Origin: Bacteriovoracia bacterium
Lineage (GTDB): Bacteria; Bdellovibrionota; UBA1018; JBFWNL01
DNA length: 64,000 nt
Direction: 5' to 3'
Assembly: GCA_050251055.1 (NCBI GenBank)
Contig: JBFWNL010000004.1
Location: 288,001-352,000 of the forward strand
The notes below the pieces were generated by a model. It was given only the letters and a program-made list of their open reading frames with translations. It did no database searches and had not been told where the DNA came from. Every line of letters begins with the position of its first letter. The first letter of the stretch is position 1. The translations under genes were made by a program, and so were the position numbers. Positions 1-48,006 of this stretch are shown piece after piece.

Positions 1-519
1 TTCGGACTCTTCGCTGGCGGTGGCCACCAGCGCCAGCCCGGCGGCCAACACGCAGCCCGCGACGCCAATCAAGGTCATCCAAGGAGTAGAGGACTGCCAG
101 GCGATGCCACTGCCGATCGCGCCGCACAGCAAAGCCGTCGCAAGTTTACGGGTCGGCTTGGCGGACTCGCCGGAAATAACGAACGTCAACACCGTGAGCA
201 AAATTCCGAGCAGGATCCAGCTTTGCCCCACGACATCGTAGGCGAACCCGACCTGAATACCGACGGGGGAGGACGTAGGGTCGATCCATCCACGCATCCA
301 ACTTAACGAGCCGCCTTCCCTTAAATTTTCCCAAAGGAGCAAAAAGGCACGGACGTTCAAACCAAAAGTCAACGCCGCGACGATTCCAAAGCCCCATCGG
401 ACAAATGCCAGACGCCCTCCCGGGGTGAGGCGCCCGGCGAAATAAAATGCCCAAGCCACTGCAACCAAGGAGAGGGTGGGCAAAACGGCGGTGACGAGCG
501 AGGTGCTTTCGAATCTCAT
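1..519 (-). CDS. NuoL/antiporter-like membrane subunit, N-terminal part (runs off window edge), highly divergent
   Basis: Not in the ORF track. Manual translation from the ATG at 519 gives MRFESTSLVTAVLPTLSLVAVAWAFYF...WMRGWIDPTSSPVGIQVGFAYDVVGQSWILLGILL..., open to position 1. It is hydrophobic and directly follows nuoK. Confidence 0.6.
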   Translation of the reverse strand, partial: MRFESTSLVTAVLPTLSLVAVAWAFYFAGRLTPGGRLAFVRWGFGIVAALTFGLNVRAFLLLWENLREGGSLSWMRGWIDPTSSPVGIQVGFAYDVVGQSWILLGILLTVLTFVISGESAKPTRKLATALLCGAIGSGIAWQSSTPWMTLIGVAGCVLAAGLALVATASEESE

Positions 520-523
520 GGGT

Positions 524-811
524 TCAGTGCCGCAGCTTTCTGAACGTTTCAATATTCACGTTCTTCTTTAGATAAAAAAGCCGGGTCGCGAGCGAAAACA
601 CCACGAGTAGCTGCCCGCAGCCCGCGACGATCACGAAAAACCCGTACACGTGTCCCTGCGACTGCAGGCCCGCCAACACCCCGCCGACCGAAAAACAAGC
701 CGCCGCCGCGTAAAATAACAAGACGATCCCAATGGCCATCCCAATCAGGTTACGCTTCAAAAGGAGGCAAAAAAATCCAATGGCCGCCAGCGCGACGGGA
801 ATGGCGATCAT
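524..811 (-). CDS. nuoK: NADH-quinone oxidoreductase subunit K-like (divergent)
   Basis: 95 aa with 3 TM segments; LLKRNLI motif; GHVYGFFVI; position after nuoJ with ATGA overlap. Confidence 0.75.
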   Translation of the reverse strand: MIAIPVALAAIGFFCLLLKRNLIGMAIGIVLLFYAAAACFSVGGVLAGLQSQGHVYGFFVIVAGCGQLLVVFSLATRLFYLKKNVNIETFRKLRH

Positions 812-1281
812 TCCGACTTTCCCTCCGATCGCGAAACCACGCCCACCCCCAGCATCACCAGGAACAGCGTGAGCGCGAGTATCTCCAGCGGAAGCAGCTG
901 GGAGCCGAACAACGTCGCGCCGAACTGAACCACCTCATTCGGAGGAAACGCGACTTCGCCGCCCTCAGGCAGGTAACGTACCGCGAGACCCGTCACCGTC
1001 GCCAGGCAGGCGGCGGCCAGGAGGGCCGTCGCGCGATAAAAGAAATTCGCCGGGCGTTCCCGCGACCCGAAAAGCACCACGTAGAACAAGAACACCACGG
1101 CGCAAACCGACGTAATCACCCACTGCGAGACCGCCAGGAATTCCGATCCTGTCGCGAGGAAGCTCGCGCCCAAGGCCATGCCGCAAACCCAAAGGGAAAA
1201 CAGCGCGAGCCGATAGTTCGCCGCCATCGCCGCCACCAGCGCCGCCGCGACCGCCAAAATCCCAAAGCTCCAAAAGACCAT
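808..1281 (-). CDS. nuoJ: NADH-quinone oxidoreductase subunit J-like (divergent)
   Basis: 5 TM segments; SEFLAVSQ and LLPLEILALTL motifs; start at ATG 1281 overlaps the nuoI stop. Confidence 0.75.
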   Translation of the reverse strand: MVFWSFGILAVAAALVAAMAANYRLALFSLWVCGMALGASFLATGSEFLAVSQWVITSVCAVVFLFYVVLFGSRERPANFFYRATALLAAACLATVTGLAVRYLPEGGEVAFPPNEVVQFGATLFGSQLLPLEILALTLFLVMLGVGVVSRSEGKSE

Positions 1282-1817
1282 CAATCCTCCATGTTTTCGC
1301 GTTGGCGCGCCTGGATCCACTTTTCCCTCTGCTCGGGCGAAATTCGCCCCCGGCCGAAGGTGGTCACCAGATTCGATACATCATAGACCGCGCCCTCGAA
1401 TTGCTTGGTGTGCACCAGGGAACCCGGGTGGCAAGCCTCCACGCAAAGGCCGCAAAAAATGCATTGCCCGAAGTCGATGTCGTAGACCGAAACCCACTTT
1501 TTCGACGGATCCGGGCCATGCTCGGTCTCCACGGTAATGCACTTCACCGGGCAGATCCGCTCGCATTCCTGGCAACCCGTGCAGCGGTCGATGTCGTTGA
1601 ACAACAATCCGCGCGTGCGGGGCGGCAGATCGTCCTCGGTGCGCGAAGACACCGGATCGGGGTACTGCTCGGTGATCTCCTTACGAAGCTCGCCCGTGTT
1701 AAAAAGATAGTGAAAACCGCTAACGGCGGAAACGAGCACCGACCGCACGCCGGCGCCCACCTGGACTGCGTAAGACATCAGCGTGGAAATCAATGTGTCT
1801 TTCATAGGTATCGACAT
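1281..1817 (-). CDS. nuoI: NADH-quinone oxidoreductase subunit I-like, 2x[4Fe-4S]
   Basis: TEQYP, RTRG, CTGCQECERICP and CIFCGLCVEAC motifs. Confidence 0.9.
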   Translation of the reverse strand: MSIPMKDTLISTLMSYAVQVGAGVRSVLVSAVSGFHYLFNTGELRKEITEQYPDPVSSRTEDDLPPRTRGLLFNDIDRCTGCQECERICPVKCITVETEHGPDPSKKWVSVYDIDFGQCIFCGLCVEACHPGSLVHTKQFEGAVYDVSNLVTTFGRGRISPEQREKWIQARQRENMED

Positions 1818-1827
1818 CCGCTCGTGC

Positions 1828-2892
1828 TCAAAACAAACTCCGTCCTCCGAGCCAGAGGCACTCGATCAGTAGCGCTCCCAACGCGCAGGGTCCCAGGATC
1901 CGCCAGCAAAACTCCGTCGTTTGGTCCGAGCGCGGCTTCGGCAAGGACCCCACCACCCAATGCGTCGCAAACATCAACAAAAAGACCTTCATCACAAGAT
2001 TCACGAGCTGCACGACCTGCAGAAGCAAACCCTCTCCCGTCAGGCTCACCGCCCAGCCCGGCAGCTTCCAACCCCCAAGAAAGGTGACCGTGGTGGCAAG
2101 CGCCCAAAAAAAACCGCCGTAGAACCGCAGCAAGCGCGTGATGGAAAGACTGGGCCCGGCCACTCCCTGAAAAAAACCGCCTTGGAGATCCGCCCGGGAA
2201 AATCCCGCGTCGAAAGGCGAAACCGAAAACACAACCAGGCCGCCCAGGTAATACGCCAGGAAAACGATGGTAAAGAGAGGCCACGGCTGTTGAAAAACCA
2301 GCCACGAGCCTGGCCAGAAACCCTGATGTTCGAGGATGGCCTGCCACCGGTAACCGCCCACGGCCAGTCCCACACAGAGGATGGAAACCATCACCACGAA
2401 TCCCCCCGATAGGGCCTGGGCGGTGTTGCGGATCATTCCGACCCAGCCTTGGGCGTCGCGCCGGTAAAACCCGTAGAACAAAAAGAAAAAGCTCAAAATA
2501 ATCCCGAAGATCAGCGGCACGAACGCGCTCATATCGGTGTCGAATAGATTAAAGCGTGAGGAGAGCGGGATCGTGAGCACGGACGCGAGCGCCACGCACA
2601 GCAAGGTTCCCAGCCAGAAAAGCTCAGCACGGCGAGGCTTGTGAGCGGGTGACTTCTGGATCAGCTTGAAAAAATCCGCGAGTGGCTGGAAATAGCCGCG
2701 CGGCCCGGCCTCCGCAGGGCCCACGCGAGCTTGCAGGTCCGCGAAGAATTTCCGACGGACGTAAACATCCAAATAAGCCATGGGAACGAGCAGAAGCGCA
2801 ACCACGGCGAGGAAAAAACAAAACAGGAAAAGAATATCCGGCAAGCCGGCGAACATTCCCAAGGTTTGGCGAAGCTCCGGGAGTGCGTTCAT
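1828..2892 (-). CDS. nuoH: NADH-quinone oxidoreductase subunit H-like (divergent)
   Basis: RK..A.LQ.RVGP, QPLADFFKL, PFD, FLGGW and PRSDQ motifs; about 8 TM segments. Confidence 0.85.
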   Translation of the reverse strand: MNALPELRQTLGMFAGLPDILFLFCFFLAVVALLLVPMAYLDVYVRRKFFADLQARVGPAEAGPRGYFQPLADFFKLIQKSPAHKPRRAELFWLGTLLCVALASVLTIPLSSRFNLFDTDMSAFVPLIFGIILSFFFLFYGFYRRDAQGWVGMIRNTAQALSGGFVVMVSILCVGLAVGGYRWQAILEHQGFWPGSWLVFQQPWPLFTIVFLAYYLGGLVVFSVSPFDAGFSRADLQGGFFQGVAGPSLSITRLLRFYGGFFWALATTVTFLGGWKLPGWAVSLTGEGLLLQVVQLVNLVMKVFLLMFATHWVVGSLPKPRSDQTTEFCWRILGPCALGALLIECLWLGGRSLF

Positions 2893-4034
2893 CGATCGGC
2901 TTCTCCCACCGAGATATCCAGACTAGCAAGGATCAAAGGGAAATCGCCCACCCACTGTCCGACCAGGATCTCGGGCACCGCCTGTAAGAGCGCCTTGCTC
3001 CCTCCCCGGACCTGCAAGCGATAAGGGGTATTTCCGCCGTCGGAGACCGCATGGACGGCCAGGACTCCGCGTGCCCCTTCGACGCGCGAATACGCCTCGC
3101 CCTCGGGCACCTTGAAATCGAAAAGCTCCTTCACGGCGCGGTATTCGCCCACCGGAATATTCTCGATCGCCTGGCGGATTATGTCGACGCTCTGGACGAT
3201 CTCACGCAGCCGCACGACCACGCGGTCGTGCACGCCGCCCAGCCGATCGCCCTCTCCTGATCCCACCGGCACCTGAAACTCGAACTCTTCGTATCCACTG
3301 TAGGGCGCGGACTTTCGCATGTCCGACACGACCCCGGACGCACGCGCGTCCGGGCCCGTGATGCCGTACCGGCGCACGACCTCCGGGTGCAGGAGCCCCA
3401 CGCCGGCGGACCGGCGCTGAAAAATATGATTCGACGTGAAAAGGTCCTGATACTCGCGTACCCGCGTGCGAATCAGGTCGCACACTTCCGAGACCCGCTC
3501 GATAAATCCGTCGGTGATATCGGTGGCCACCCCGCCGAAGCGGAAATAATTCAGGTTAAAGCGCGAACCGCTGATCAGCTCGAAAAGATCCAGGATTTTT
3601 TCGCGGTCGCGCAGGACGTAATGCATCACCGTCTCGAGCTCCACGGTCTTCGCGATCCGTAGTAGCGCGCCCAAATGGGCGCTGATTCGGTTCAGCTCGC
3701 AGAGCGTGACGCGGATCCGGTTGGCGCGAGGGGAGACCTGCAGGCCGGCGATTTCCTCCACCGCCAGGCACACCGCCAATTCGGTAAATAGCGCGGTCTC
3801 CGAATCGATCCGGTCGGCGTAGGGCATCACGCTGTACCACTGCTGAAGCTCGATGGCCTTTTCCACGCCCCGATGAAAAAAACCTGATTCGCAGTGCACG
3901 CCGGTGATCATCTCGCCGTCGAGCTGCAGCTTCAGCGCCATTGGCCCCGGCAGTCCCGGATGGAATGGCCCCAGCTCCCACGCCGTCTGCACGGTGCTAA
4001 ACAGGTCGGGGCGGTCGTTCTCCATTTCCACCAT
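2889..4034 (-). CDS. nuoD: NADH-quinone oxidoreductase subunit D-like (divergent)
   Basis: GPFHP, GFFHRGVEK, ELNRISAHL, GP..RASG..D.RK..PY and C-terminal GEADR. Start set at ATG 4034, just after the nuoC stop. No NiFe CxxC motifs. Confidence 0.9.
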   Translation of the reverse strand: MVEMENDRPDLFSTVQTAWELGPFHPGLPGPMALKLQLDGEMITGVHCESGFFHRGVEKAIELQQWYSVMPYADRIDSETALFTELAVCLAVEEIAGLQVSPRANRIRVTLCELNRISAHLGALLRIAKTVELETVMHYVLRDREKILDLFELISGSRFNLNYFRFGGVATDITDGFIERVSEVCDLIRTRVREYQDLFTSNHIFQRRSAGVGLLHPEVVRRYGITGPDARASGVVSDMRKSAPYSGYEEFEFQVPVGSGEGDRLGGVHDRVVVRLREIVQSVDIIRQAIENIPVGEYRAVKELFDFKVPEGEAYSRVEGARGVLAVHAVSDGGNTPYRLQVRGGSKALLQAVPEILVGQWVGDFPLILASLDISVGEADR

Positions 4035-4036
4035 GG

Positions 4037-4534
4037 CTAGATTTCCTCGCTTCGCCGCGGACGCGGAATTTCCGGCAGACGGAACTCGCGCCGGAGGGGG
4101 TAGCCCGTGATCTGCTCCGGCACCGGCCGGAAGGAGACGTTTTTTTCCGTGGGATGCGTGAAATCGATCCCTAGGAGCGCCTGCAGTTCCGACTCGAACT
4201 GCCACGCGGACGGGAAGATCGGCTGAATCGAAGGGATCGCGTAAAGTCCGCCGGAATCGGCTTCCAAGCGCGTCCGGAAGATCACCCGCTGCTGGGTACG
4301 CTGGGACACCAGGAAGTATGTCAGCACCATCTTCGACTTCTCTTCGTAGCCGGAGATGCACTCAAGGAAATCCGCCTCGGTTTCGGCGTCCTCACGGCAA
4401 GCCCGCACCGCGACTTCCACCGCGTCCGGGCGCAAAGTGAAAAACGGCACCTGGGCCGCCCCGAAGGTCCCCACCGAGACCACGCCTCCCGAACGGCGAT
4501 CGTTAATAGACGTCTTTAAATTTTTTAGATCCAA
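4037..4534 (-). CDS. nuoC: NADH-quinone oxidoreductase subunit C-like
   Basis: IPSIQPIFPSA..FESE...LLGIDF and GYPLRREF motifs. Confidence 0.8.
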   Translation of the reverse strand: MDLKNLKTSINDRRSGGVVSVGTFGAAQVPFFTLRPDAVEVAVRACREDAETEADFLECISGYEEKSKMVLTYFLVSQRTQQRVIFRTRLEADSGGLYAIPSIQPIFPSAWQFESELQALLGIDFTHPTEKNVSFRPVPEQITGYPLRREFRLPEIPRPRRSEEI

Positions 4535-4973
4535 TGATCTTCTCCTGGAGGGTCAAAAGCCCGTTCATCACCGCTTCGGGTCGCGGTGGACAGCCGGAAA
4601 CGAAAACATCGACCGGAATCAGTTTCTCCACGCCGGGCACGACGGAATAACTGATGCCCGGGGAAAACGCGCCGCCGGTGCACGCGCATCCACCAACGGC
4701 CAAGACGTACTTGGGCGAAGGCATCCGATCGTAAAGTTCCTTCAAAACCGGCGCCAGTCGGTAAGTGATCGCGCCGCTCACGATCAGGAGGTCCGCCTGC
4801 AGCGGATCGACCTGCGGCAGGCTGCCGAAACGTTCGAGGTCGTAGCGGCAACCGAAGGCGTTCGTCACCTCATCCGAGCAGCAGCCGGTGCCGACGGAAA
4901 AATACCAAAGCGATTTCGCGCGAGACCACTTCAGCAACGAATCCACGGACGTGACCTTGAAGAATGCGCTCAC
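4503..4973 (-). CDS. nuoB: NADH-quinone oxidoreductase subunit B
   Basis: GCC..E, RYDLERFG, QADLLIVSG, PKYV.AVGGCA and VDVFVSGCPPRPE. GTG start overlaps the nuoA stop (GTGA). Confidence 0.92.
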   Translation of the reverse strand: MSAFFKVTSVDSLLKWSRAKSLWYFSVGTGCCSDEVTNAFGCRYDLERFGSLPQVDPLQADLLIVSGAITYRLAPVLKELYDRMPSPKYVLAVGGCACTGGAFSPGISYSVVPGVEKLIPVDVFVSGCPPRPEAVMNGLLTLQEKIIGSKKFKDVY

Positions 4974-5362
4974 GCCTCGTCTTCCTTTCGGAAGGACTTC
5001 AGCCATTCGAGATCGCCCTTGCGGATCGCGTAGAAGAGCCCCAGGCCCAGAAAAGCTCCGATAGAAACGATCGCGGCCAATCCCCGCAATCCGGTTTCGG
5101 CGGAGGAGGAATTCAACGATTCGCGGAACGCCGCCACGCAGGGAGCGAGCACCAATACCAAGAGCACGAGCAATGTCGCGATGTTACCGAATAAAGAGAT
5201 ACGGGGGTTCAGCTTCGCATCCCAAACGATCGGCTTTAGCGGCGTCGCAGTTCCACCGAGCGGCCCGCCATCCCGACGAAAGAATCGCCCCATCAGCAGC
5301 ACGAGGATCGGCACACAGATGCTAAATAGAGCGCATATAATGATAACTACATACGAGCCCAA
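4970..5362 (-). CDS. nuoA: NADH-quinone oxidoreductase subunit A-like (divergent); start uncertain
   Basis: 3 TM segments; C-terminal GLFYAIRKGDLEW; first gene of the operon. TTG at 5362 follows a G-rich RBS-like stretch. Confidence 0.75.
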   Translation of the reverse strand: MGSYVVIIICALFSICVPILVLLMGRFFRRDGGPLGGTATPLKPIVWDAKLNPRISLFGNIATLLVLLVLVLAPCVAAFRESLNSSSAETGLRGLAAIVSIGAFLGLGLFYAIRKGDLEWLKSFRKEDEA

Positions 5363-5460
5363 GCCGTCCCCCGCGAAAGTTACCCCAAAAGTCGAACAAA
5401 ATTCGAACTTTAGGCTACTGAAGTTGAAAACCAGTGTCAAGGTTGGGTAAGGTCGATTGA

Positions 5461-25334: not shown

Positions 25335-26588
25335 TTAGTTAGCGGATTCGGCAGAGGAGATAAATTCGGCCGCCCTGCCGGCGCTGACGCGAAATTTTTT
25401 CCCGGAAGTTCCCAACGCGATGGGCTCTCGAGGAGTAATCCACTCCACGTCTTCCGTGGTGGTCACGAAAACCTGCAAGCTCGTCTCGAGGAGCATCTCG
25501 AGTAGGAAGGTGCGGCGGTCCCGATCGAGCTCCGACGAAAAGTCATCCAACAGAAGCAGGGGATTCAAGCCGGTGGCCTGCCGGAACATCTGGATTTCGA
25601 CGAGTTTCAGCGCCAGGAGCACCGATCGAGTCTCTCCCTGCGATCCGTAACCCTTTAAAGCCTGGCTTCCGATTTGAAAAAGCCAATCATCGCGATGCGG
25701 GCCAGCCAGGGTCGTGCCGGCGCGCCACTCGGCGCTTTCGAGTTTCGTCAGCTCAGCGGCCAATCGATTCCGAATACGTCCCAGAGCGTCTGCGGGGTCC
25801 AAATCAGGAAGCTGAACTCGATTTAAGTCGTCGCCCCCCAATGCCAATCCGTTTTCCTTCGCCAGCCACTTGGAACTGTAGAACGCATCGGTGGAATTCT
25901 GGGTGGGCGCGATTCGCTGCAGCACTGGTTTGATGTTCTCGTTTACGCGCTTGAGCCACTCAAGGCGCTTGAGGGTGATTTCAGAACCGCTCTCAACCAA
26001 TTCTTGGGTGAATTCTTGAAAAATGGTCCGAACGGAGGTCTCAGGCGATTTTAAAATCGCATTACGCTGCTCTAATGCCCGTTTATAGCGACGAAGTGCC
26101 GTCAGGTAGTCCAGGTCTTCGGATCCGATGACTTGGTCCAGGTAGGAGCGCCGAATAGAAGGTTCGCCCCGAACCAATTGGTGGTCGGAGGGATTGAAAA
26201 CGATCGCATGAAACCCTTTGAGAAATGATTCGAAGCGTTGGCTCACATAAGCGAGCGCACTTCGACAAGGTTTGTCATTGATAAACGCGGACTGCGTGCT
26301 TCGCTTCCGAAGGAGATCTTTTCTTTCGAAGACGACCTGGAAGCGACTTATGGAATCATCCTGGATGATCTCGCAGCCGATCTCGCCCGTCATGGTTTCA
26401 TTTTGGATCAAGTCATCCACCTTCGCCCCCCGGAAGGAGCGGAGCGTAGCAAGCAGATGAATCGCCTCAATGATACTGGTCTTGCCTTGGGCGTTCGCCC
26501 CGATGAAAAAATTCAACCGCCCATCGGGCTCGATCGTGAGCTCGGCGATGTTCCGGAAGTTCCGAAAGTAAAGCTTCTGGAGTCTCAC
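25335..26588 (-). CDS. recF: DNA replication/repair protein RecF
   Basis: NFRN, GANAQGKT, GPHRDD, GSQGE and LLLDD. Confidence 0.96.
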   Translation of the reverse strand: MRLQKLYFRNFRNIAELTIEPDGRLNFFIGANAQGKTSIIEAIHLLATLRSFRGAKVDDLIQNETMTGEIGCEIIQDDSISRFQVVFERKDLLRKRSTQSAFINDKPCRSALAYVSQRFESFLKGFHAIVFNPSDHQLVRGEPSIRRSYLDQVIGSEDLDYLTALRRYKRALEQRNAILKSPETSVRTIFQEFTQELVESGSEITLKRLEWLKRVNENIKPVLQRIAPTQNSTDAFYSSKWLAKENGLALGGDDLNRVQLPDLDPADALGRIRNRLAAELTKLESAEWRAGTTLAGPHRDDWLFQIGSQALKGYGSQGETRSVLLALKLVEIQMFRQATGLNPLLLLDDFSSELDRDRRTFLLEMLLETSLQVFVTTTEDVEWITPREPIALGTSGKKFRVSAGRAAEFISSAESAN

Positions 26589-27694
26589 TAGATCCGCATT
26601 GGCATGACGATATAAGTGTGGCTTTTTTGCTCGGCGCCTTGGAACACGCCGGGATTCAGGCGGTCTTTGAATTTAAATTCCACCTTCGAGGATTGCAGCA
26701 CCGGCAGGCAATCCAGGAGATACTTGGCGTTGAAGCCAATTTCCACGGGCTCGCCTTTGTATTCGATATCGAGCTCCTCGCGGGCTTCACCCATGTCCGG
26801 ATTGCTGGAAGTAATCACCATCATGCCGTTTTCGACGGCGAACTTGATGCCGCGACTTTTTTCGTGCGCAAGCAAGCTCACGCGGCGGACGGCAGCGGTG
26901 AGCGCTTCGCGATCTACGAAAGCAGAACGGTCCACGGCTTTCGGAATGACTTGCTTGTAATCCGGATACTCGCCTTCGATCAGGCGAACGAAAAGGTAAG
27001 TGTCGTTCAAATGGGCGAAGATATAACCGCGATCAAACGCTAGACCGATGGTTTCACCGCCTTCGTCGAGCATCTTCTTCAGCTCGCCCAAGCCCTTCTT
27101 CGGAATAATCATTCCGCGCTTCATCTCCGGAGCTTTCAGAAAGACTTCTTGGTCGATGAACGAGAGCCGATGCCCGTCCGTGGCCGTCATTCGCATCAAA
27201 TTATTTTCCAAAGGCTCGAAAAACACGCCGCTCAGATTGTAACGGGTGGCGTCCGTCGAAACGGCGAAGGAAGTTTTATTCACCATGTCCGAGAGAGTCG
27301 CGACCTTGGCTTGAAAATATTCTTTTTCTTCGTAATTCGGTAAGGCGGGGTATTCGTCGGCCGACAGGCTTACGACGTTGAACTTGGATTTACCGCAAAC
27401 GAGCTCGATCCAATCGTTATTCTTACGGGAGATCTCCAAAGGCTTGCTAGGGAGTTCCTTGACGATGTCCAAGAAGTTCTTGGCGGAGAGGGTGATACGA
27501 CCATCTTGCGAAGCTTGCACGGGGAGAGTGACCTTCACGCCGACTTCCAGATCGGTCGCTTGCAATTCCAAACGTCCGTCTTTCACATGGCAGAGAATAT
27601 TGGCCAGGATCTGAACGGTGTTCTTCTTTTCCACGACGGATTGAACCTTCTGGAGCGCGTTCAATAACTGATCCCGATCGATGGTAAACTTCAT
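26588..27694 (-). CDS. dnaN: DNA polymerase III beta clamp
   Basis: ATDLE, ATDGHRL, GEYPDY, GFNAKYL and VMPMR. Confidence 0.98.
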   Translation of the reverse strand: MKFTIDRDQLLNALQKVQSVVEKKNTVQILANILCHVKDGRLELQATDLEVGVKVTLPVQASQDGRITLSAKNFLDIVKELPSKPLEISRKNNDWIELVCGKSKFNVVSLSADEYPALPNYEEKEYFQAKVATLSDMVNKTSFAVSTDATRYNLSGVFFEPLENNLMRMTATDGHRLSFIDQEVFLKAPEMKRGMIIPKKGLGELKKMLDEGGETIGLAFDRGYIFAHLNDTYLFVRLIEGEYPDYKQVIPKAVDRSAFVDREALTAAVRRVSLLAHEKSRGIKFAVENGMMVITSSNPDMGEAREELDIEYKGEPVEIGFNAKYLLDCLPVLQSSKVEFKFKDRLNPGVFQGAEQKSHTYIVMPMRI

Positions 27695-27749
27695 CTCGAA
27701 CTTCCCCTTACTGAAATGGAATTTGGTGGTCTAACCCCGAGCCCTCTTC

Positions 27750-28240
27750 TCATAAGAATATATATATATAAAGATAGTAGTCGTAGTAGAGGACCCGTTT
27801 TTGTGGATAACCTAATTAACCCCTGAATACCGCAAGTCATTTGGGTTTCAAAACCCCGTTGAAAACCCTGGGGATGGTTTTGATGATTTTGGGGATAAGT
27901 TTTAAAAACCGGACTTCCGGCGGTTATCCCCAGATAAAATTCAAAATCGCCGGGATAAGTTTTAGTACTCGGAAGTATTTCTCAAATATTTGGCGTTTCT
28001 TGCGTGCGCTTTCAGATTTATCCCCCGCTATCCACAAGGGTTGCCGGTTTTCCACACCGATTTTTTCGGAAGTTTGTGTATAACGAGCTGGGGATAAGTG
28101 GGTAAATGAAAATTCTTTTTTCTTTCTATAGGTTATCAAAATAAGCCCTGTGGATAGTCAGGGGATAACTCTGAATAGTGGATATCTTTTCCAGGTGGAA
28201 TACAGACTTATCCACGTGGATTACCCAGGTTTATCCACGT
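27750..28240. other. oriC: Chromosomal replication origin oriC
   Basis: Lies in the dnaA-dnaN intergenic region. (AT)n DUE at 27758-27770; TAG trios at 27775-27789; perfect DnaA box TGTGGATAA at 27802-27810; more than 10 further box-like 9-mers (e.g. 28028, 28048, 28075, 28149, 28208, 28231). Confidence 0.93.
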
Positions 28241-39982: not shown

Positions 39983-40888
39983 TCATCGCTTTTCTTTAGA
40001 CTCGCCCTTTTCCTGAGATCCCTCACCCTCTTTGGGAGGGTCTGGGGTTGGAGTGGGGAATGGATTCGGAGTCGGATTCTTGGTATCGGGGTTTTCCCCC
40101 AATCGGACCGCGGCTTCCGTGCAGAGAGTTTCTACCAGCGTTTGATTTTTTTCCACTTCCCGGCCTTGGGGATCGAGAATGCCGCTGCAAGTAAGAGGTT
40201 TCAGACCTTGGCGAAGCGTGCCGATCGAATTCAAAATGGCATCGAAGTCGAGCGGTAAAATCGACATCTTGCGCACGAAGTTGTCGACGTTCAGCACGAG
40301 ATCCAATCCTTGGGTCTCTTGAGTGATGTCGAAGTCGCCGATAAAGCGAAGCTGATAAGGCTGGGGAGTCGCATTCCAACCCAAAGCGTTATGAATAAAT
40401 ACGGAAGTGTTCACCCACATATATCCTGGGCAAAAGCTGTGACGGGTCTGCAGGATAAGTCCACCGTAGAGTCCTTCGGGAAGCGAGATGGTAGAAAGGG
40501 AAGTCAGACCCATGCCGATGTAGCCGGGGCCATCTCCGTTCCCGAAAACCGTGTCGTCAGGAGCTGCGACTGTAGTGGTTTGTGGGCCTCGTTCCTTCGG
40601 GTACCCGTTTGAGTTCGGAAGCGAGTAACGAGGGGTTTCTGTGCCAGCGCGTGGAATGGCGGTGATGCTCTCGATGCACGCGCTGAAGTGATACACACCA
40701 TTTTCAATCGTGCGCTCGTAGTAAAGGTTGGCCTTTTTGAAGTCGTGAGAATTTTCCGGATTTCCGATTTTGGTGCCGCCGCCAGACACGCTTGCCGTAG
40801 AAGAGTCGCTGCTGCCACCGACCGCGCAGGATGACATGGCTGCGATCAGCAAGACGACGCTGAAATTGGCTAAAATCCCCAGTTTCAA
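39983..40888 (-). CDS. Hypothetical lipoprotein
   Basis: Lipobox MSSC; Ser/Gly linker followed by GGTKIGNP; Pro-rich tail; TTG start with a GGGGG RBS. Confidence 0.75.
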   Translation of the reverse strand: MKLGILANFSVVLLIAAMSSCAVGGSSDSSTASVSGGGTKIGNPENSHDFKKANLYYERTIENGVYHFSACIESITAIPRAGTETPRYSLPNSNGYPKERGPQTTTVAAPDDTVFGNGDGPGYIGMGLTSLSTISLPEGLYGGLILQTRHSFCPGYMWVNTSVFIHNALGWNATPQPYQLRFIGDFDITQETQGLDLVLNVDNFVRKMSILPLDFDAILNSIGTLRQGLKPLTCSGILDPQGREVEKNQTLVETLCTEAAVRLGENPDTKNPTPNPFPTPTPDPPKEGEGSQEKGESKEKR

Positions 40889-40890
40889 GA

Positions 40891-42071
40891 ATGGCCCCCA
40901 AAAAAGATCTGCGTAGCTCTATTATAGCGCAGTGCGTTTTAAAAATTGTTAAGACGAGATAAATAATTATTTAATAAATACATATAGTTAAGCGGATTCC
41001 CGAGCCATCGGGATGGCGGCCAAGGTCACGTAATAGACCGAGTCGCGGGCGGGGTTTTTCTGGGTGAGGTCGTAGATTTTAGCCATGGTTTCTTCAATGA
41101 GGGTGCGTACCTCGTGGAAGGTCTTTTGATCCATGCCGATGGAAAAGCCTAGAATGTGACGATGTTCGCGGTCGACGCGTTGAATGGATTCAGCGACCAA
41201 ATCGAGCATCGATTTGTGGTATTCCGCCATCGCGACCCGGTAAACCTCGGCGTCGCATTCGATGAGTTTGCTAGAGGGTTGCGTCTTTTCGATGTAACCG
41301 TGATCGACCAAAAACTGCACGGCTTTCTTGATTTCGATGAGCGGCACGGGATACACCAACCGTTTTTGAATCCACTCCGGATCTAGCTGAAAATGGCTCA
41401 TTCCAGACATTTCGCGAATCGCGACGTAAAACCAGCGGGAGAGGTAGCGATAGACTTCGAACTCTTTTGGATTTAGGCGGCGGTAGGTGGCGAAGTTCTG
41501 AATTGTTTGGAAAGCTTCGCGACGCGCTTTGGTGTCCCGTGATTTCGTGATCGTGCGCAATGAGCGAAAGAAATTCGCCTCCGCCGGGGAGAGATCCATC
41601 AGCGGAATTAGCTTTTCGAGCGCCTTTTGAGTGAGGGAGCGCGCGCCTTTTATGACGAGGGGAAGGTGGGCTGGCGTCAGCCCCGCCGATTTCGCGAGGG
41701 CGCGTTGAGAGAATTTGGGCTGCGCCCCCCTTTGAAAAGCGAGCCAATCCTTTAGGAAGGCCACGGGATCATTATATTGGTGAATATCAGGGCGATTCAT
41801 AAAGTGATTACATTTGATAATAATCTATGTGTAATCGGGGTGGAATATAATATTTAATTATATGATTTTATTATATAAACAATTGAAAATACATGCAGTA
41901 CGATTACATTTATAAAAATATTATTTGACTATGATGCTATGTGTTGGTAATCTGGTTACAGAAGCGCAGGACACCGAGGGTATACGGAAAATGCGCGGAC
42001 GAGTCACTTAGCATCATTCGGGGTTGATCTGGGTAAGTGGGATTCGGGGTGGGTATTTTTTTGGGGGCCAT
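40891..42071. repeat. Perfect 15-bp inverted repeat pair (40891-40905 and 42057-42071)
   Basis: ATGGCCCCCAAAAAA ... TTTTTTGGGGGCCAT, read directly. Confidence 0.85.
40988..41800 (-). CDS. TIGR02147-family protein (N-terminal HTH plus DUF4423-like domain)
   Basis: 270 aa; DI.QY.D...FL, FSQRALAKSAGL, VIKGARSL and YLSRWFYVAIRE match the recalled family pattern. Confidence 0.85.
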   Translation of the reverse strand: MNRPDIHQYNDPVAFLKDWLAFQRGAQPKFSQRALAKSAGLTPAHLPLVIKGARSLTQKALEKLIPLMDLSPAEANFFRSLRTITKSRDTKARREAFQTIQNFATYRRLNPKEFEVYRYLSRWFYVAIREMSGMSHFQLDPEWIQKRLVYPVPLIEIKKAVQFLVDHGYIEKTQPSSKLIECDAEVYRVAMAEYHKSMLDLVAESIQRVDREHRHILGFSIGMDQKTFHEVRTLIEETMAKIYDLTQKNPARDSVYYVTLAAIPMARESA

Positions 42072-44264: not shown

Positions 44265-46172
44265 ATGAGTTCCTTCGACGTCATTATAATAGGCGGAGGC
44301 CACGCGGGCTGCGAGGCCGCGCATGCTTCCGTGCGCATGGGATGCTCCACGGCGATGGTGACGCTCGATCCGAAGCGCGTGGGCGTGATGTCGTGCAACC
44401 CCGCGATGGGTGGCCTGGCCAAGGGTCAGCTCGTGAAAGAGATTGATGCGCTTGGCGGGATCATGGGTCGCCAGACGGATCAAACCGCGATTCAGTATCG
44501 GCGCCTCAATTCGAGCAAAGGTCCCGCAGTGCGCTCGTCGCGCGCTCAGTGCGATAAGCCTCTCTATGCTAAAAAAATGCAGGAATTTCTTGGGAATTTA
44601 GCGGGTCTTTCGATCGTGGCCGGCGAAGCAACCGAGTTAATGTTCGAAGGCGCGGGAAGTTCGCGGCAGATCGCGGGTGTGCGCTTGAAAGACGGAAGCC
44701 TGCTTCGCGCACGCGCGGTCGTGATCACTTCCGGAACTTTTCTTTCGGCGATCATGCACACGGGAGAAGAAAAAGCGAAGGGCGGAAGGTTGGGGGACGC
44801 GGCTGCTTATGGGCTCAGCACCACCCTCTCTCAATTGGGCTTTCGGTTGCGCCGCCTGAAAACGGGTACTCCCCCGAGGCTTCACAAAGACAGTATCGAT
44901 TTTTCGAAAACCGAACCCCAGGCCGGGGACACGGTTCCGGTCCCCTTTTCCTTTTACCAGAAGCTCAATCCCTTCCCTTCTCTAACTCAAGTAAATTGCT
45001 TTATCACCTACACCAACCAACAAACACATGATATTATTGAGAAAAATATTCATAAATCCCCCATGTTCACCGGGGCGATTACCGGTGTGGGTCCACGCTA
45101 CTGCCCCTCGATTGAAGATAAAGTAAATCGATTTAGTGATAAAGACCGCCACCAGATCTTTCTCGAGCCCGAGGGGCTGGAGGTCAATGAGATCTATGTG
45201 AATGGGATTTCCACGAGTCTTCCCAAAGACACCCAAGAAAAATTCTTACGCACCATCCCAGGACTCGAACAAGCTCAGTTCCTGAAGTACGGGTACGCCG
45301 TCGAATATGACGCGATTGATGCGCGTCAGCTCCAGGCGACCCTCGAATCAAAAGAACATCGGGGCCTTTTCTTGGCCGGCCAAGTCAACGGAACTTCCGG
45401 TTATGAAGAAGCCGGGGCGCAGGGTCTCATCGCCGGGATCAACGCCGCGCTTCTGGTTAAAGAGAAAGACCCTTTCGTCTTGTCGAGACTGGATGCCTAC
45501 ATCGGAGTGATGATCGACGATTTGATCTTGAAGGGCTCGGACGAGCCCTACCGGATGTTCACGTCGCGCGCCGAGTATCGCCTGCTTTTGCGCGAAGACA
45601 ACGCGGACATGCGTCTAAGCCCGAAGGGTCACGCCGTGGGTTTACTGAGCGATGCAGATTTTCGTGTTTTTAGCGAGAAAAAGGCCCAAATTGAGCGATT
45701 GCATGGACAGATGAAAGAAAATTTCGTCTTTCCAACGGCGGAAACCAACGAAAAGCTCAAAACGTGGGAGATTCGCGAGCTCAAAGACCGCGTTTCTTTC
45801 GAGCAAATGCTGAAACGTCCGGAAATGAACTGGGATCGGCTGACCGCCCTCGGATCGAGCTGGGCGAACGCTTACGATCCGGTGGTTTTGGAGCAGGTGG
45901 AGATTCAGCTTCGATACGAAGGCTACATTCAACGCGATCTGGATCTATTGAACGGAGTTCGTAAGAACGAAGAACTTCGCATTCCGAAGGCACTCGATTT
46001 TGCCGAGGTGGCTGGCCTTTCGAATGAAATCAAAGCGCGGTTGGAGCAAGTCAGGCCGGAAACCATCGGGCAGATGTCACGAATCCAGGGCATTACCCCC
46101 GCGGCCGTGGCAAATTTAATGATTTTTCTCAAAATCCGCGAAAAACCACCCCGTTTTGAGGCTTCTCCGTGA
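44265..46172 (+). CDS. mnmG: tRNA uridine-5-carboxymethylaminomethyl modification enzyme
   Basis: [34 protein letters not shown] and [13 protein letters not shown]. Confidence 0.98.
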
Positions 46173-46846
46173 GTCCATCGGATTCCGGCGCCCTTTTCCA
46201 GGGTCTATTAGAGAAGAAATGGCCGGACTTAACCCCCATTCAGGTGCAGAAGCTCGTCCAGTTCCGCGAATTGGTTCTCAAAGGAAACGAGACTCAGAAT
46301 CTGACCCGGATTGTAGAACCGATTCCATTTATTGAAGATCACCTTCTGGATGTCGTGGAATGGTTTAAAACGGACCTCAATCCCGGAAAATACGTCGATT
46401 TAGGGTCCGGCGCGGGCATTCCAGGCATCGTCGGGGGGATTTTACGTCCGGATCCCTGGGTTTTAACCGAATCTGAGGGCAAGAAAGCAAACTTCCTTGC
46501 CGCTACGACCGAGGAGTTAGGCCTTACAAACGTCCAAGTCTTCCCTGGTAGAGCGGAAGTCTTCCTGAAAACGGCCCCTTTTAACGATTATACAGTGGTT
46601 TCGCGGGCGGTAGGCTCGGTTTCAAAGATATTTGGGTGGATTTCGGGGTGTTCCACGTGGAACATGCTGGTTTTGTTCAAAGGGCCGAAATGGGACGAAG
46701 AGTGGATGGAGTTTCAAAAAGATCCGGCCAGAAAACGCGGTAAGACTACTCTCAAGCTGATGAGTATCCATAAATACGAAGTGGGTGAGCTAGTACGGCA
46801 GAGAAAGATTATCCATCTGCAGAATGTTCCACGTGGAACAGAGTAG
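46169..46846 (+). CDS. rsmG: 16S rRNA m7G527 methyltransferase
   Basis: [19 protein letters not shown] and KG motifs; follows mnmG. Confidence 0.93.
46649..46664. promoter_or_regulatory. parS: parS site 1 (within rsmG)
   Basis: Perfect palindrome TGTTCCACGTGGAACA. Confidence 0.95.
46825..46840. promoter_or_regulatory. parS: parS site 2 (within the rsmG 3' end)
   Basis: Perfect palindrome TGTTCCACGTGGAACA. Confidence 0.95.
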
Positions 46847-47169
46847 TCGTAAATACCCACTAGGTATTCATAGGTAACCACGCGCTGCGAAAATCAAAAG
46901 CGTCAAATTTTCGACTCTCAAGTCCTTGATATCATGTGAACCTGCTCAAAACAAAACTGGATAAGCAACGCAGTTTGTCTTGAGATTCCGCTTGATTGAA
47001 ATGAGGTTCATGAGTAGCCTAAATTTGTAGTCGCGTAGGGCGGCGCAAAGTTTCAGATACCCACGCCCAACCACACACAGGATTTGAGGTTTCAAGTACT
47101 CTCCCGGAAGTTTCGGGGGAGTACTCGAGACTAACCAAAAATCAAATCCCGCTAGAAGGAATTCAATTC

Positions 47170-47994
47170 ATGGGAAAAGTGATTGCTGTCACGAACCAGA
47201 AGGGCGGAGTTGGAAAAACGACCACGACCACCAATCTGGCGGCATGTCTTGCGGTCGCCGAAAGAAAAACCCTCGTGATTGATTTCGATCCGCAAGGAAA
47301 TGCTTCCTCCGCGCTCGGAGTGAAACCCATCGAAGGAAAAACAATTTACCACGCGCTTATCGGAGAAATTCCGATGAAAGACGCGATTCAGTCGACGGAG
47401 ATTGACCAGCTTTTCGTCGCTACCGCCGACAATAATCTCACCGGCGCGGAGATCGAACTCGTCGGCGCGTTCGCGCGCGAGTCGAAACTTAAAGCCGCAA
47501 TCGCGCAGATCAAAGATCAATTCGATTTCATCTTGATCGATTCACCGCCGTCGCTCGGTTTGCTCACCGTGAACTCGCTTACGGCGGCGGACAGCTACCT
47601 GGTTCCGCTGCAGACGGAATACTTCGCGCTCGAAGGACTCAGTCAGCTCATTAATACGGTGGGACTCATCAGTCAGAGCGTGAATCCCGGCATCCAACAA
47701 GAAGGCATTGTCCTGACGATGTACGACGGACGCAACAAGCTCGCGCAAGAAGTGGAAACGGAAGTGCGAGCGCATTTCGGCGAGCAGGTTTATCAGACGG
47801 TGATTCCGCGCAACGTTCGCTTGAGCGAATGCTCAAGCTTCGGCAAGCCGATTTTGCTCTACGACATCAACTCGAAGGGCTGCTCGGCCTATCTCAATCT
47901 CGCTAAAGAGTTATTAAATAAGAATCGGCCGAAGATCGCGCCGCCGCCGTTCGTGGTGGAAGCGCCAAATCACGAAGCCCAGCAAATCAGCTAA
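47170..47994 (+). CDS. parA: Chromosome partition ATPase ParA/Soj
   Basis: NQKGGVGKTT, DPQGNAS, DSPPSLG and IPRNVRLSE. Confidence 0.97.
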   Translation: MGKVIAVTNQKGGVGKTTTTTNLAACLAVAERKTLVIDFDPQGNASSALGVKPIEGKTIYHALIGEIPMKDAIQSTEIDQLFVATADNNLTGAEIELVGAFARESKLKAAIAQIKDQFDFILIDSPPSLGLLTVNSLTAADSYLVPLQTEYFALEGLSQLINTVGLISQSVNPGIQQEGIVLTMYDGRNKLAQEVETEVRAHFGEQVYQTVIPRNVRLSECSSFGKPILLYDINSKGCSAYLNLAKELLNKNRPKIAPPPFVVEAPNHEAQQIS

Positions 47995-48006
47995 GGAGTA
48001 CACGGA

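Follow-up and report, generated by a model that had tools for sequence, protein, structure and literature searches.

The window, by which we mean the whole 64,000-nt stretch that was analysed (positions 288,001 to 352,000 of contig JBFWNL010000004.1 of a Bacteriovoracia bacterium; G000:C4:288001-352000), opens with part of a gene cluster encoding a relative of respiratory complex I. Translation of the open reading frames (ORFs) at positions 1-5362 of the minus strand gave nine overlapping or abutting ORFs of a nuoABCDHIJKLMN cluster, which we call S2 (Table 1). We also read the contig beyond the window edge, where the remainder of nuoL2 (655 aa in full), nuoM2 (507 aa) and nuoN2 (493 aa) are located. 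The 11 co-directional genes follow the order A-B-C-D-H-I-J-K-L-M-N, as in canonical nuo. A canonical 14-gene nuoA-N operon, S1, begins 29 nt past the nuoN2 stop, head to tail with S2, and carries the motifs FECG and FDVE in NuoA, CIELM and AAAES in NuoK, LVYAGA in NuoJ and LGWEG in NuoL. In this reading of the contig, no nuoE, nuoF or nuoG was found within S2, all three being present only in the downstream S1. Pfam and NCBIfam assigned seven of the window ORFs (NuoB, C, D, H, I, J and K), with low scores for the membrane subunits, and together with PDB chains and hhalign they showed that homologues of all 11 NUO11 core subunits are encoded together in S2.

Table 1. Genes of the S2 cluster inside the window.
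Feature	Positions	Strand	Basis and remarks
nuoL2 5' part, first ~173 codons	1..519	-	gene runs on to G000:C4:286585; longest ORF start 552
nuoK2, 95 aa	524..811	-	Pfam PF00420, 30.7 bits; alignment to 3rko_K
nuoJ2, 170-aa ORF	808..1320	-	Pfam PF00499, 36.6 bits; alignment to 3rko_J
nuoI2, 178 aa, two intact 4Fe-4S motifs	1281..1817	-	Fer4 families; TIGR01971, 86.8 bits
nuoH2, 354 aa	1828..2892	-	Pfam PF00146, 149.1 bits; alignment to NdhA chains
nuoD2, 381 aa, ATG overlapping nuoC2 stop	2889..4034	-	Pfam PF00346, 253.2 bits; alignment to 2fug_4
nuoC2, 165 aa, weakly conserved	4037..4534	-	Pfam PF00329, 58.3 bits
nuoB2, 167 aa, four N2 Cys intact	4503..5006	-	NF005012, 188.8 bits (cut-off 116)
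nuoA2, 130 aa from TTG at 5362	4970..5362	-	Pfam PF00507, 17.5 bits, below cut-off

A sequence-only reading of the window had claimed, from alignments by eye, that acids of the proton pathway are absent from NuoA, NuoH, NuoJ, NuoK and the NuoL N-terminus, and that the membrane arm cannot pump protons by the canonical route. The motifs on which it relied are present in the minus-strand translations, namely GIVLLF and GCGQLL in the NuoK-like ORF, SQWVITSVCAV in the NuoJ-like ORF, VRRK and SVSPFDAGFSRADLQGGFFQGV in the NuoH-like ORF and LIGVAG in the NuoL-like ORF (1-552), and neither YECG nor FDVE occurs in the NuoA-like ORF (4970-5440). All five alignments were borne out by phmmer comparison with solved chains, by hhalign and by family alignments. 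The residues concerned belong to the E-channel, the antiporter Glu/Lys/His and the quinone ligands, and their numbering was checked on the alignments to solved chains. In nuoK2, Val30 falls on E. coli Glu36 and Gln67 on Glu72 (phmmer against 3rko_K), while Tyr59 in transmembrane helix 3 (TM3) of E. coli NuoJ is matched by Thr70 of nuoJ2 and a one-residue gap (phmmer against 3rko_J). Alignment of nuoH2 with chloroplast NdhA placed VRRK on LERE, and the TM5-6 loop quoted above on the acid-bearing loop of NdhA. When S2 was compared with canonical family profiles by hhalign, LI--GVAG of nuoL2 fell on LGWEGVG, and hydrophobic residues of nuoA2 fell on FECG and FDVE. Profile and structure-anchored alignments alike thus gave no acidic residue at the E-channel columns. 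The claimed absence of acids held for these columns and not for every acid, since NuoH Asp228 (in a PFD motif) and Asp235, and NuoJ Glu60 and Glu146, are retained in the source genome.

The part of nuoL2, nuoM2 and nuoN2 beyond the window edge is not canonical either. Relative to P. denitrificans NuoM, nuoM2 carries Leu for the TM5 Glu, Arg for the TM7 Lys, Pro for the TM8 Lys and Gln for the TM12 Glu, and relative to NdhB, nuoN2 carries Gln for Glu and Phe, Pro and Arg for three Lys. We scored 32 functional sites spanning the E-channel of NuoA/H/J/K, the Glu/Lys/His of NuoL/M/N and His38, Tyr87 and Asp139 of NuoD. For this purpose S2 regions were taken from 20 related genomes, plus the S1 region downstream of each, and the key sites were counted in MAFFT family alignments of 19-21 S2 sequences including the source genome, with S1 numbering. 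The source-genome S2 keeps 0/32 sites. Among the relatives, sixteen keep 0-3 and four (L026, L027, L028 and L030) keep 5-10, giving a graded series. None of the 21 S2 sequences retains NuoK E48 or E84, NuoJ Y62, or NuoH E166, E227 or E237, and NuoH R230 is found in one of the 21; NuoA D70/E72 is retained in 0/19. All six NuoL sites (E153, K243, H348, K356, K412 and D413) are missing from every one of the 21 sequences. The other two antiporter-like subunits retain a few residues: for NuoM, E147 in 1/21, K236 in 1/21 (Arg in 20/21), K267 in 4/21 and E409 in 2/21; for NuoN, E145 in 3/21, K230 in 2/21, K260 in 1/21 and K412 in 12/21 (Arg in 8/21). Because the S2 family alignments show the same losses, these are neither chance nor private to the source genome.

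In the S1 control, the listed residues are kept in all 20-21 sequences (20 for NuoL), except NuoJ Tyr62 (20/21). Outside the phylum, the 52 nearest NuoH sequences, on contigs labelled Chlorobi, Ignavibacteria, Bacteroidota, Zixibacteria, Acidobacteria and others, carry the canonical residue in 50-52 of 52 at 18 key columns, except for a change of Arg37 to Lys that is common to S2 and these 52 sequences. It could be argued that the loss is only apparent, the acids of very divergent hydrophobic proteins having shifted by a few positions in the alignments, and A2, J2, K2 and L2 indeed match their Pfam and PDB relatives weakly or not at all, so that single alignments could err. We consider such an artefact scarcely credible, given that the same result came from phmmer against the solved chains, from profile comparison with hhalign and from the MAFFT alignments of the families, and that the S2 family by itself, with no canonical protein aligned, lacks conserved Asp and Glu in K2 and L2 and has only Asp143, at the C-terminal end, in A2.

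The most divergent subunits remain recognisable as members of their families. The hhalign comparison of S2 with S1 families gave 97.5% for A, 98.3% for J, 96.5% for K and 98.5% for L, the last over 582 columns and spanning residues 23-654, and nuoM2 and nuoN2 match PDB chains at E values of 4e-52 and 2.7e-46. By sequence, no Pfam or PDB match was obtained for nuoL2 and no PDB match for nuoA2. We modelled L2 with AlphaFold2 from 18 family sequences (mean predicted local distance difference test score 73, predicted template modelling score 0.76), and all structural statements made here come from this single predicted model. In this model a helix of 77 residues (553-629) precedes a terminal one (633-654), and the closest folds in the PDB are those of NdhF, ND5 and NuoL over their full length, with TM-scores of 0.62-0.70. 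As judged from this model, nuoL2 is predicted to retain the full antiporter-like fold with the long lateral helix and the C-terminal anchor helix. The Atlas record of nuoL2 begins at residue 12. In language-model features, L2 lies nearest to Pfam-less 'hypothetical protein' clusters of the Atlas, one of them from Bdellovibrionota and others, of 552-562 aa, labelled Candidatus Dormiibacterota and Pseudomonadota. These clusters may represent parallel degenerate NuoL-like proteins.

We also considered whether other ionisable residues have taken the place of those lost. At canonical D/E/K/R/H/Y columns (conserved at >=90%), the source-genome S2 keeps 52/191 in the seven membrane subunits and 66/151 in B/C/D/I. 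No replacement set of conserved ionisable residues was seen in the S2 membrane subunits in the S2 family alignments. At >=85% conservation, A2 and K2 have one S2-specific polar residue each, J2 has two and L2 has none, and most such residues also occur in canonical Bdellovibrionota relatives. Since the E-channel and NuoL/M/N residues are lost and no replacement set is present, pumping by the canonical route is unlikely for S2. The claim that the membrane arm is unable to pump canonically therefore stands for S2, as a conclusion drawn from sequence, and it concerns one paralogue only, the canonical S1 lying just downstream.

The change extends past the membrane arm, and so beyond what the sequence-only reading had observed. 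Compared with T. thermophilus Nqo4 (2fug_4), nuoD2 carries Pro for His38, Ser for Tyr87 and Thr for Asp139. Across the S2 family, these quinone ligands (H56, Y105 and D157 in S1 numbering) are kept in 0/21, 4/21 and 0/21 sequences, respectively. With its ligands replaced, the quinone head-group site is therefore lost as well as the proton path. A Glu lies beside the former Tyr87 position in 16/21 S2 sequences, which we infer to be one sign of remodelling at the acceptor site. The ligands of the iron-sulfur (Fe-S) clusters are retained: all four Cys of the N2 ligands of NuoB are present in 19/19 S2 sequences, and the eight Cys of NuoI that bind N6a and N6b are present in 21/21 at seven positions and in 20/21 at one. 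All 12 Fe-S Cys of NuoB and NuoI are present in the source-genome S2.

To see how widely S2 occurs, 40 genomes of the order were searched, with an S2-level NuoH match defined as E <= 2.6e-20. Such a match was found in 25 of the 31 order genomes outside family f11, usually with a canonical NuoH ~13 kb away, and in the order search 9/9 genomes of family f11 had a canonical-level NuoH match only and no S2-level one. Family f11 (9 genomes in the order search and 17 in the phylum search) has a single canonical-level NuoH match, and it presumably lost S2 or never had it. The phylum-wide profile search matched 371/401 genomes at E <= 1e-25, a level at which the score bands of S2 and canonical NuoH overlap, and residues were for this reason checked directly in 10 loci from other families. 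S2 is confined to one order in the sense that it was not found elsewhere among the genomes searched, which are single representatives and mostly metagenome-assembled genomes. When loci related to NuoH2 were sought with the 10 closest sequences as the query, the contig titles of the S2-type matches read Bacteriovoracaceae, Oligoflexia, Bdellovibrionia and Bdellovibrionales, with one Pseudomonadota. One S2-type NuoH (L076) comes from a metagenome-assembled genome labelled Bacteriovorax stolpii. An L2 profile searched against 1.84 billion representative proteins found 192 clusters (50% identity) at E <= 1e-30; among the best 150 matches, 127 are full-length, and of these 124 have 0/7 NuoL residues and three have one.

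The arrangement of the locus is conserved in the relatives. The gene mfd is the divergent upstream neighbour in 18/18 loci reaching that far, giving an mfd-S2-S1 layout, and the S2-to-S1 gap measures 20-81 nt in the 20 relatives. Contig ends truncate two of the loci; the other 18 clusters each yielded 10 or 11 of the S2 subunit ORFs. In three of these 18 (L021, L025 and L029, from G040, G019 and G009), nuoC2 was not found between nuoB2 and nuoD2, and the NuoC-like subunit seems, from the gene content, dispensable for S2 in some lineages.

The ratio of nonsynonymous to synonymous substitution rates (dN/dS) was calculated for L071/L072 (NuoH2 96.6% identical), the only unsaturated close pair. 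It was 0.051 for D2, 0.10 for H2, 0.064 for I2, 0.133 for J2, 0.083 for K2 and 0.149 for C2, and two out-of-frame ORFs used as a control gave 2.0 and 3.1. Two further pairs, with saturated synonymous sites, showed proportions of nonsynonymous differences of 0.09-0.30 against 0.73-0.89 for synonymous ones. S2 is thus under purifying selection and selectively maintained. Between the same genomes, divergence is about two times faster in S2 than in S1, with median identities of 20-50% versus 53-77%. Relative to the source genome, the medians for S2 versus S1 are 20% versus 65% for L, 26% versus 70% for K, 34% versus 63% for H, 45% versus 73% for D, and 50% versus 76-77% for B and I. This faster rate and the long branches of the NuoH tree described below would suit a decaying relic, meaning a superfluous copy that has been on its way to pseudogenes since the canonical operon took its place, as would the graded losses (5-10/32 sites kept in one subclade and 0-3 elsewhere), the absence of nuoC2 from three lineages and the lack of an S2-level match in family f11. 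We nevertheless regard decay as very improbable, in view of the low dN/dS ratios compared with the wrong frames, the near-complete set of subunit ORFs in every uncut cluster, the retention of all Fe-S ligands and the 192 L2-type clusters in public data.

We then asked where S2 comes from. S1 and S2 within the source genome are 16-41% identical, and at this level of similarity S2 is not a recent copy of S1. Other Bdellovibrionota families have split clusters, made up of a nuoAHJKLMN set, seen in 10 loci, and of a nuoBCDI set at a separate place, seen in 5 loci. Their membrane sites are mostly canonical in 10/10, with 8 or 9 of 10 at NuoA Asp70, NuoH Glu239, NuoJ Tyr62, NuoK Glu84 and NuoL Asp413, and their NuoD carries His38, Tyr87 and Asp139 in 5/5. 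A 25-residue deletion in NuoD is common to S2 and the split clusters and does not occur in S1; at the same place the alignments of nuoD2 to T. thermophilus Nqo4 and cyanobacterial NdhH break over ~24 residues. In addition, S2 profiles give higher scores than S1 profiles to the B, D and N genes of the split clusters, and many residues conserved specifically in the S2 family also occur in the split clusters. In the NuoH tree (a quick search with no mixture model), S2 forms one clade (support 99) whose branches are very long, and S1 falls together with the other families' second nuo cluster. The tree did not resolve the sister group of S2, so that the link to NUO11 rests on the shared NuoD deletion and residues. 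S2 is a fast-evolving, selectively maintained derivative of the NUO11-type complex of other Bdellovibrionota; on these sequence features it is likely the orthologue of that complex within the phylum, with a function that would have changed in this order.

The split-cluster genomes show a further arrangement. In five of the 10 loci (L131-L140, for example L137:4104-13103 and L139:4065-13204), nuoAHJKLMN directly precedes another nuoA, which is followed by nuoH in four loci and by nuoC, E and F in one; nuoBCDI lies elsewhere in the genomes (L141-L145). It seems that these genomes encode two full membrane arms.

Some details of the S2 gene models and of the window deserve mention. A GGGGGA-like stretch lies just 5' of the TTG of nuoA2 at 5362; the longest ORF starts from 5440, and homology to canonical NuoA begins at residue 28 of this long ORF (hhalign). 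The longest nuoD2 ORF (to 4361) has a 109-codon in-frame 5' extension overlapping nuoC2, which is probably untranslated, since the similarity to NuoD begins close to the ATG at 4034. In other parts of the window, G+C content falls to ~0.50-0.51 at 26001-28000, 40001-42000 and 46001-48000, compared with 0.55-0.60 in the rest.

Based on the above results, we favour the reading, to which we give a probability of about 0.5, that S2 is a maintained, redox-active complex I derivative that would not pump protons. According to this model, S2 would assemble as an L-shaped membrane complex, in which electrons would still pass along the N6a/N6b/N2 wire. The donor, by analogy with other 11-subunit enzymes, might be a soluble low-potential carrier, and the electrons would be delivered into a remodelled pocket where NuoB, NuoD and NuoH meet. 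Redox-driven pumping of protons would not occur, and the membrane arm would serve as an anchor or scaffold only.

Several points weigh against this model. The 32 functional sites were picked by hand from the complex I literature. Some residues survive, namely NuoH Asp234 in 13/21 and NuoJ Glu152 in 14/21 sequences, and the basic residues at NuoM TM7 (Arg) and NuoN TM12 (Lys or Arg) noted above, while the four-genome subclade retains the NuoD Tyr and the NuoM TM8 Lys. Gln stands at former Glu positions in NuoK (14/21 and 10/21) and NuoN (13/21), which may leave room for a polar, water-filled path. Because Tyr87, His38 and Asp139 are gone, the acceptor is hard to name, and the role of the Fe-S clusters might be no more than structural. 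It is also puzzling that a pure anchor should need seven membrane subunits under purifying selection. Finally, the probable single transcript of S2 and S1 is suggested by the short gap between them.

The polar replacements bear on the idea that S2 still moves protons or another ion, through a non-canonical and largely polar path (Gln, Arg, His, water) or through residues that vary between lineages. Such a path would make use of the Gln in NuoK and NuoN, of the Arg at NuoM TM7 and the Lys or Arg at NuoN TM12 (each 20/21), and of Glu at a TM His position (S1 His324) in 9/21 NuoM and 8/21 NuoN, within folds and a lateral helix that are kept. We consider this improbable. No ionisable residue reaches 85% conservation in K2, L2 or the helices of A2 beyond those also present in canonical relatives, and the six NuoL sites are vacant in all 21 sequences. 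Moreover, the E-channel link and the proton donors of the quinone site are gone, and the known trigger is thereby missing too.

The close association of the two clusters would also fit a different role for S2, as a catalytically silent scaffold or partner (a pseudo-enzyme) that associates with S1, assists its assembly or regulates it, with the Fe-S clusters serving folding or redox sensing and not turnover. A 25-gene co-directional array with the same short S2-S1 gaps occurs in all 21 genomes examined, and no terminator-like or promoter-like site was found in the S2-S1 gap of the source genome; scans for promoters and terminators in this gap and 5' of nuoA2 gave no more matches than would be expected from shuffled sequence. 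A whole membrane arm under purifying selection without catalytic residues, and the loss of the quinone ligands, are also what a silent partner would show. However, all 12 Fe-S Cys are kept family-wide, a strong constraint for a silent protein, and the orthologue in other families is complete, canonical-looking and encoded apart from the second nuo cluster. We therefore think a purely silent S2 rather unlikely. Somewhat less doubtful, though still put forward only tentatively beside the redox-active, non-pumping derivative that we favour, is a combined proposal: a maintained complex I whose membrane arm is devoid of canonical ionisable residues may be expressed together with S1 and have acquired a new role, as a redox-sensing or redox-driven conformational device or as an obligatory partner of S1, and not as an energy converter.

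It is still a matter of debate how complex I couples the chemistry of quinone to four proton channels that lie far from it, a question approached for the most part through single-site mutants. In S2, evolution removed the quinone ligands, the E-channel and the antiporter Lys/Glu together, yet kept the 11-subunit architecture and the Fe-S chain. If this is true, S2 would be a natural all-sites knock-out with which to ask what role the scaffold of complex I has when no protons are transferred. The graded series of relatives could show in what sequence the losses came, such as whether the membrane arm or the quinone site was the first to go, and canonical orthologues in sister families are at hand for comparison. 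There is also a warning here, as metabolic models based on genomes would count S2 as a second proton-pumping NADH dehydrogenase.

Among known systems, the split NUO11 of other Bdellovibrionota families differs from S2 in occupying two loci, whereas S2 is a single cluster with canonical gene order, and in keeping the canonical residues, which S2 does not. PMC13147790 mentions a nuoAHJKLMN cluster across the phylum, plus 14-gene clusters, in Bdellovibrionota. The 11-subunit complex I of Chlorobi, Ignavibacteria and Bacteroidota and the core of cyanobacterial and plastid NDH-1 consist of the same 11 subunits as S2, without NuoEFG. NuoH of the Chlorobi/Ignavibacteria/Bacteroidota type is the closest to H2 outside the phylum (24-29% identity) and shares with S2 the Lys of the LERK type, and the best PDB matches of H2 and N2 are NDH-1 chains. 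In PMC4758237, enzymes of the NUO11 type are taken to react with quinone, His38 and Asp139 of the quinone site being present.

The canonical 14-subunit complex I (S1, E. coli, T. thermophilus) is homologous to S2 subunit by subunit; the 11 genes that the two have in common are ordered alike, and the NuoB/NuoI Fe-S ligands do not differ. Unlike S2, it has nuoEFG and, in S1, all the functional residues. Site-directed mutants of E. coli are reported to have shown that these residues are needed for activity. A description of a complex I paralogue without them was not found in the open full-text literature searched.

Group 4 [NiFe] hydrogenases (Mbh, Mbs, Ech, FHL) resemble S2 in modular build, a NuoB/C/D/I-like redox module being joined to NuoH and to subunits of the antiporter type, and the active site in the place of NuoD not being one for quinone; D2 matches the large subunits of Mbh and FHL at E values of 1.9e-40 and 2e-33. 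These hydrogenase complexes are reported to keep the antiporter Lys/Glu. S2 differs from them in having the full complex I set of A, H, J, K, L, M and N. We ruled out that S2 is itself a [NiFe] hydrogenase, as no conserved Cys column occurs in the 21 D2 sequences and hence no NiFe site; the D2 C-terminus (...VGEADR) is NuoD-like. For partial complex I operons, PMC4453560 suggests that novel physiological roles may have evolved.

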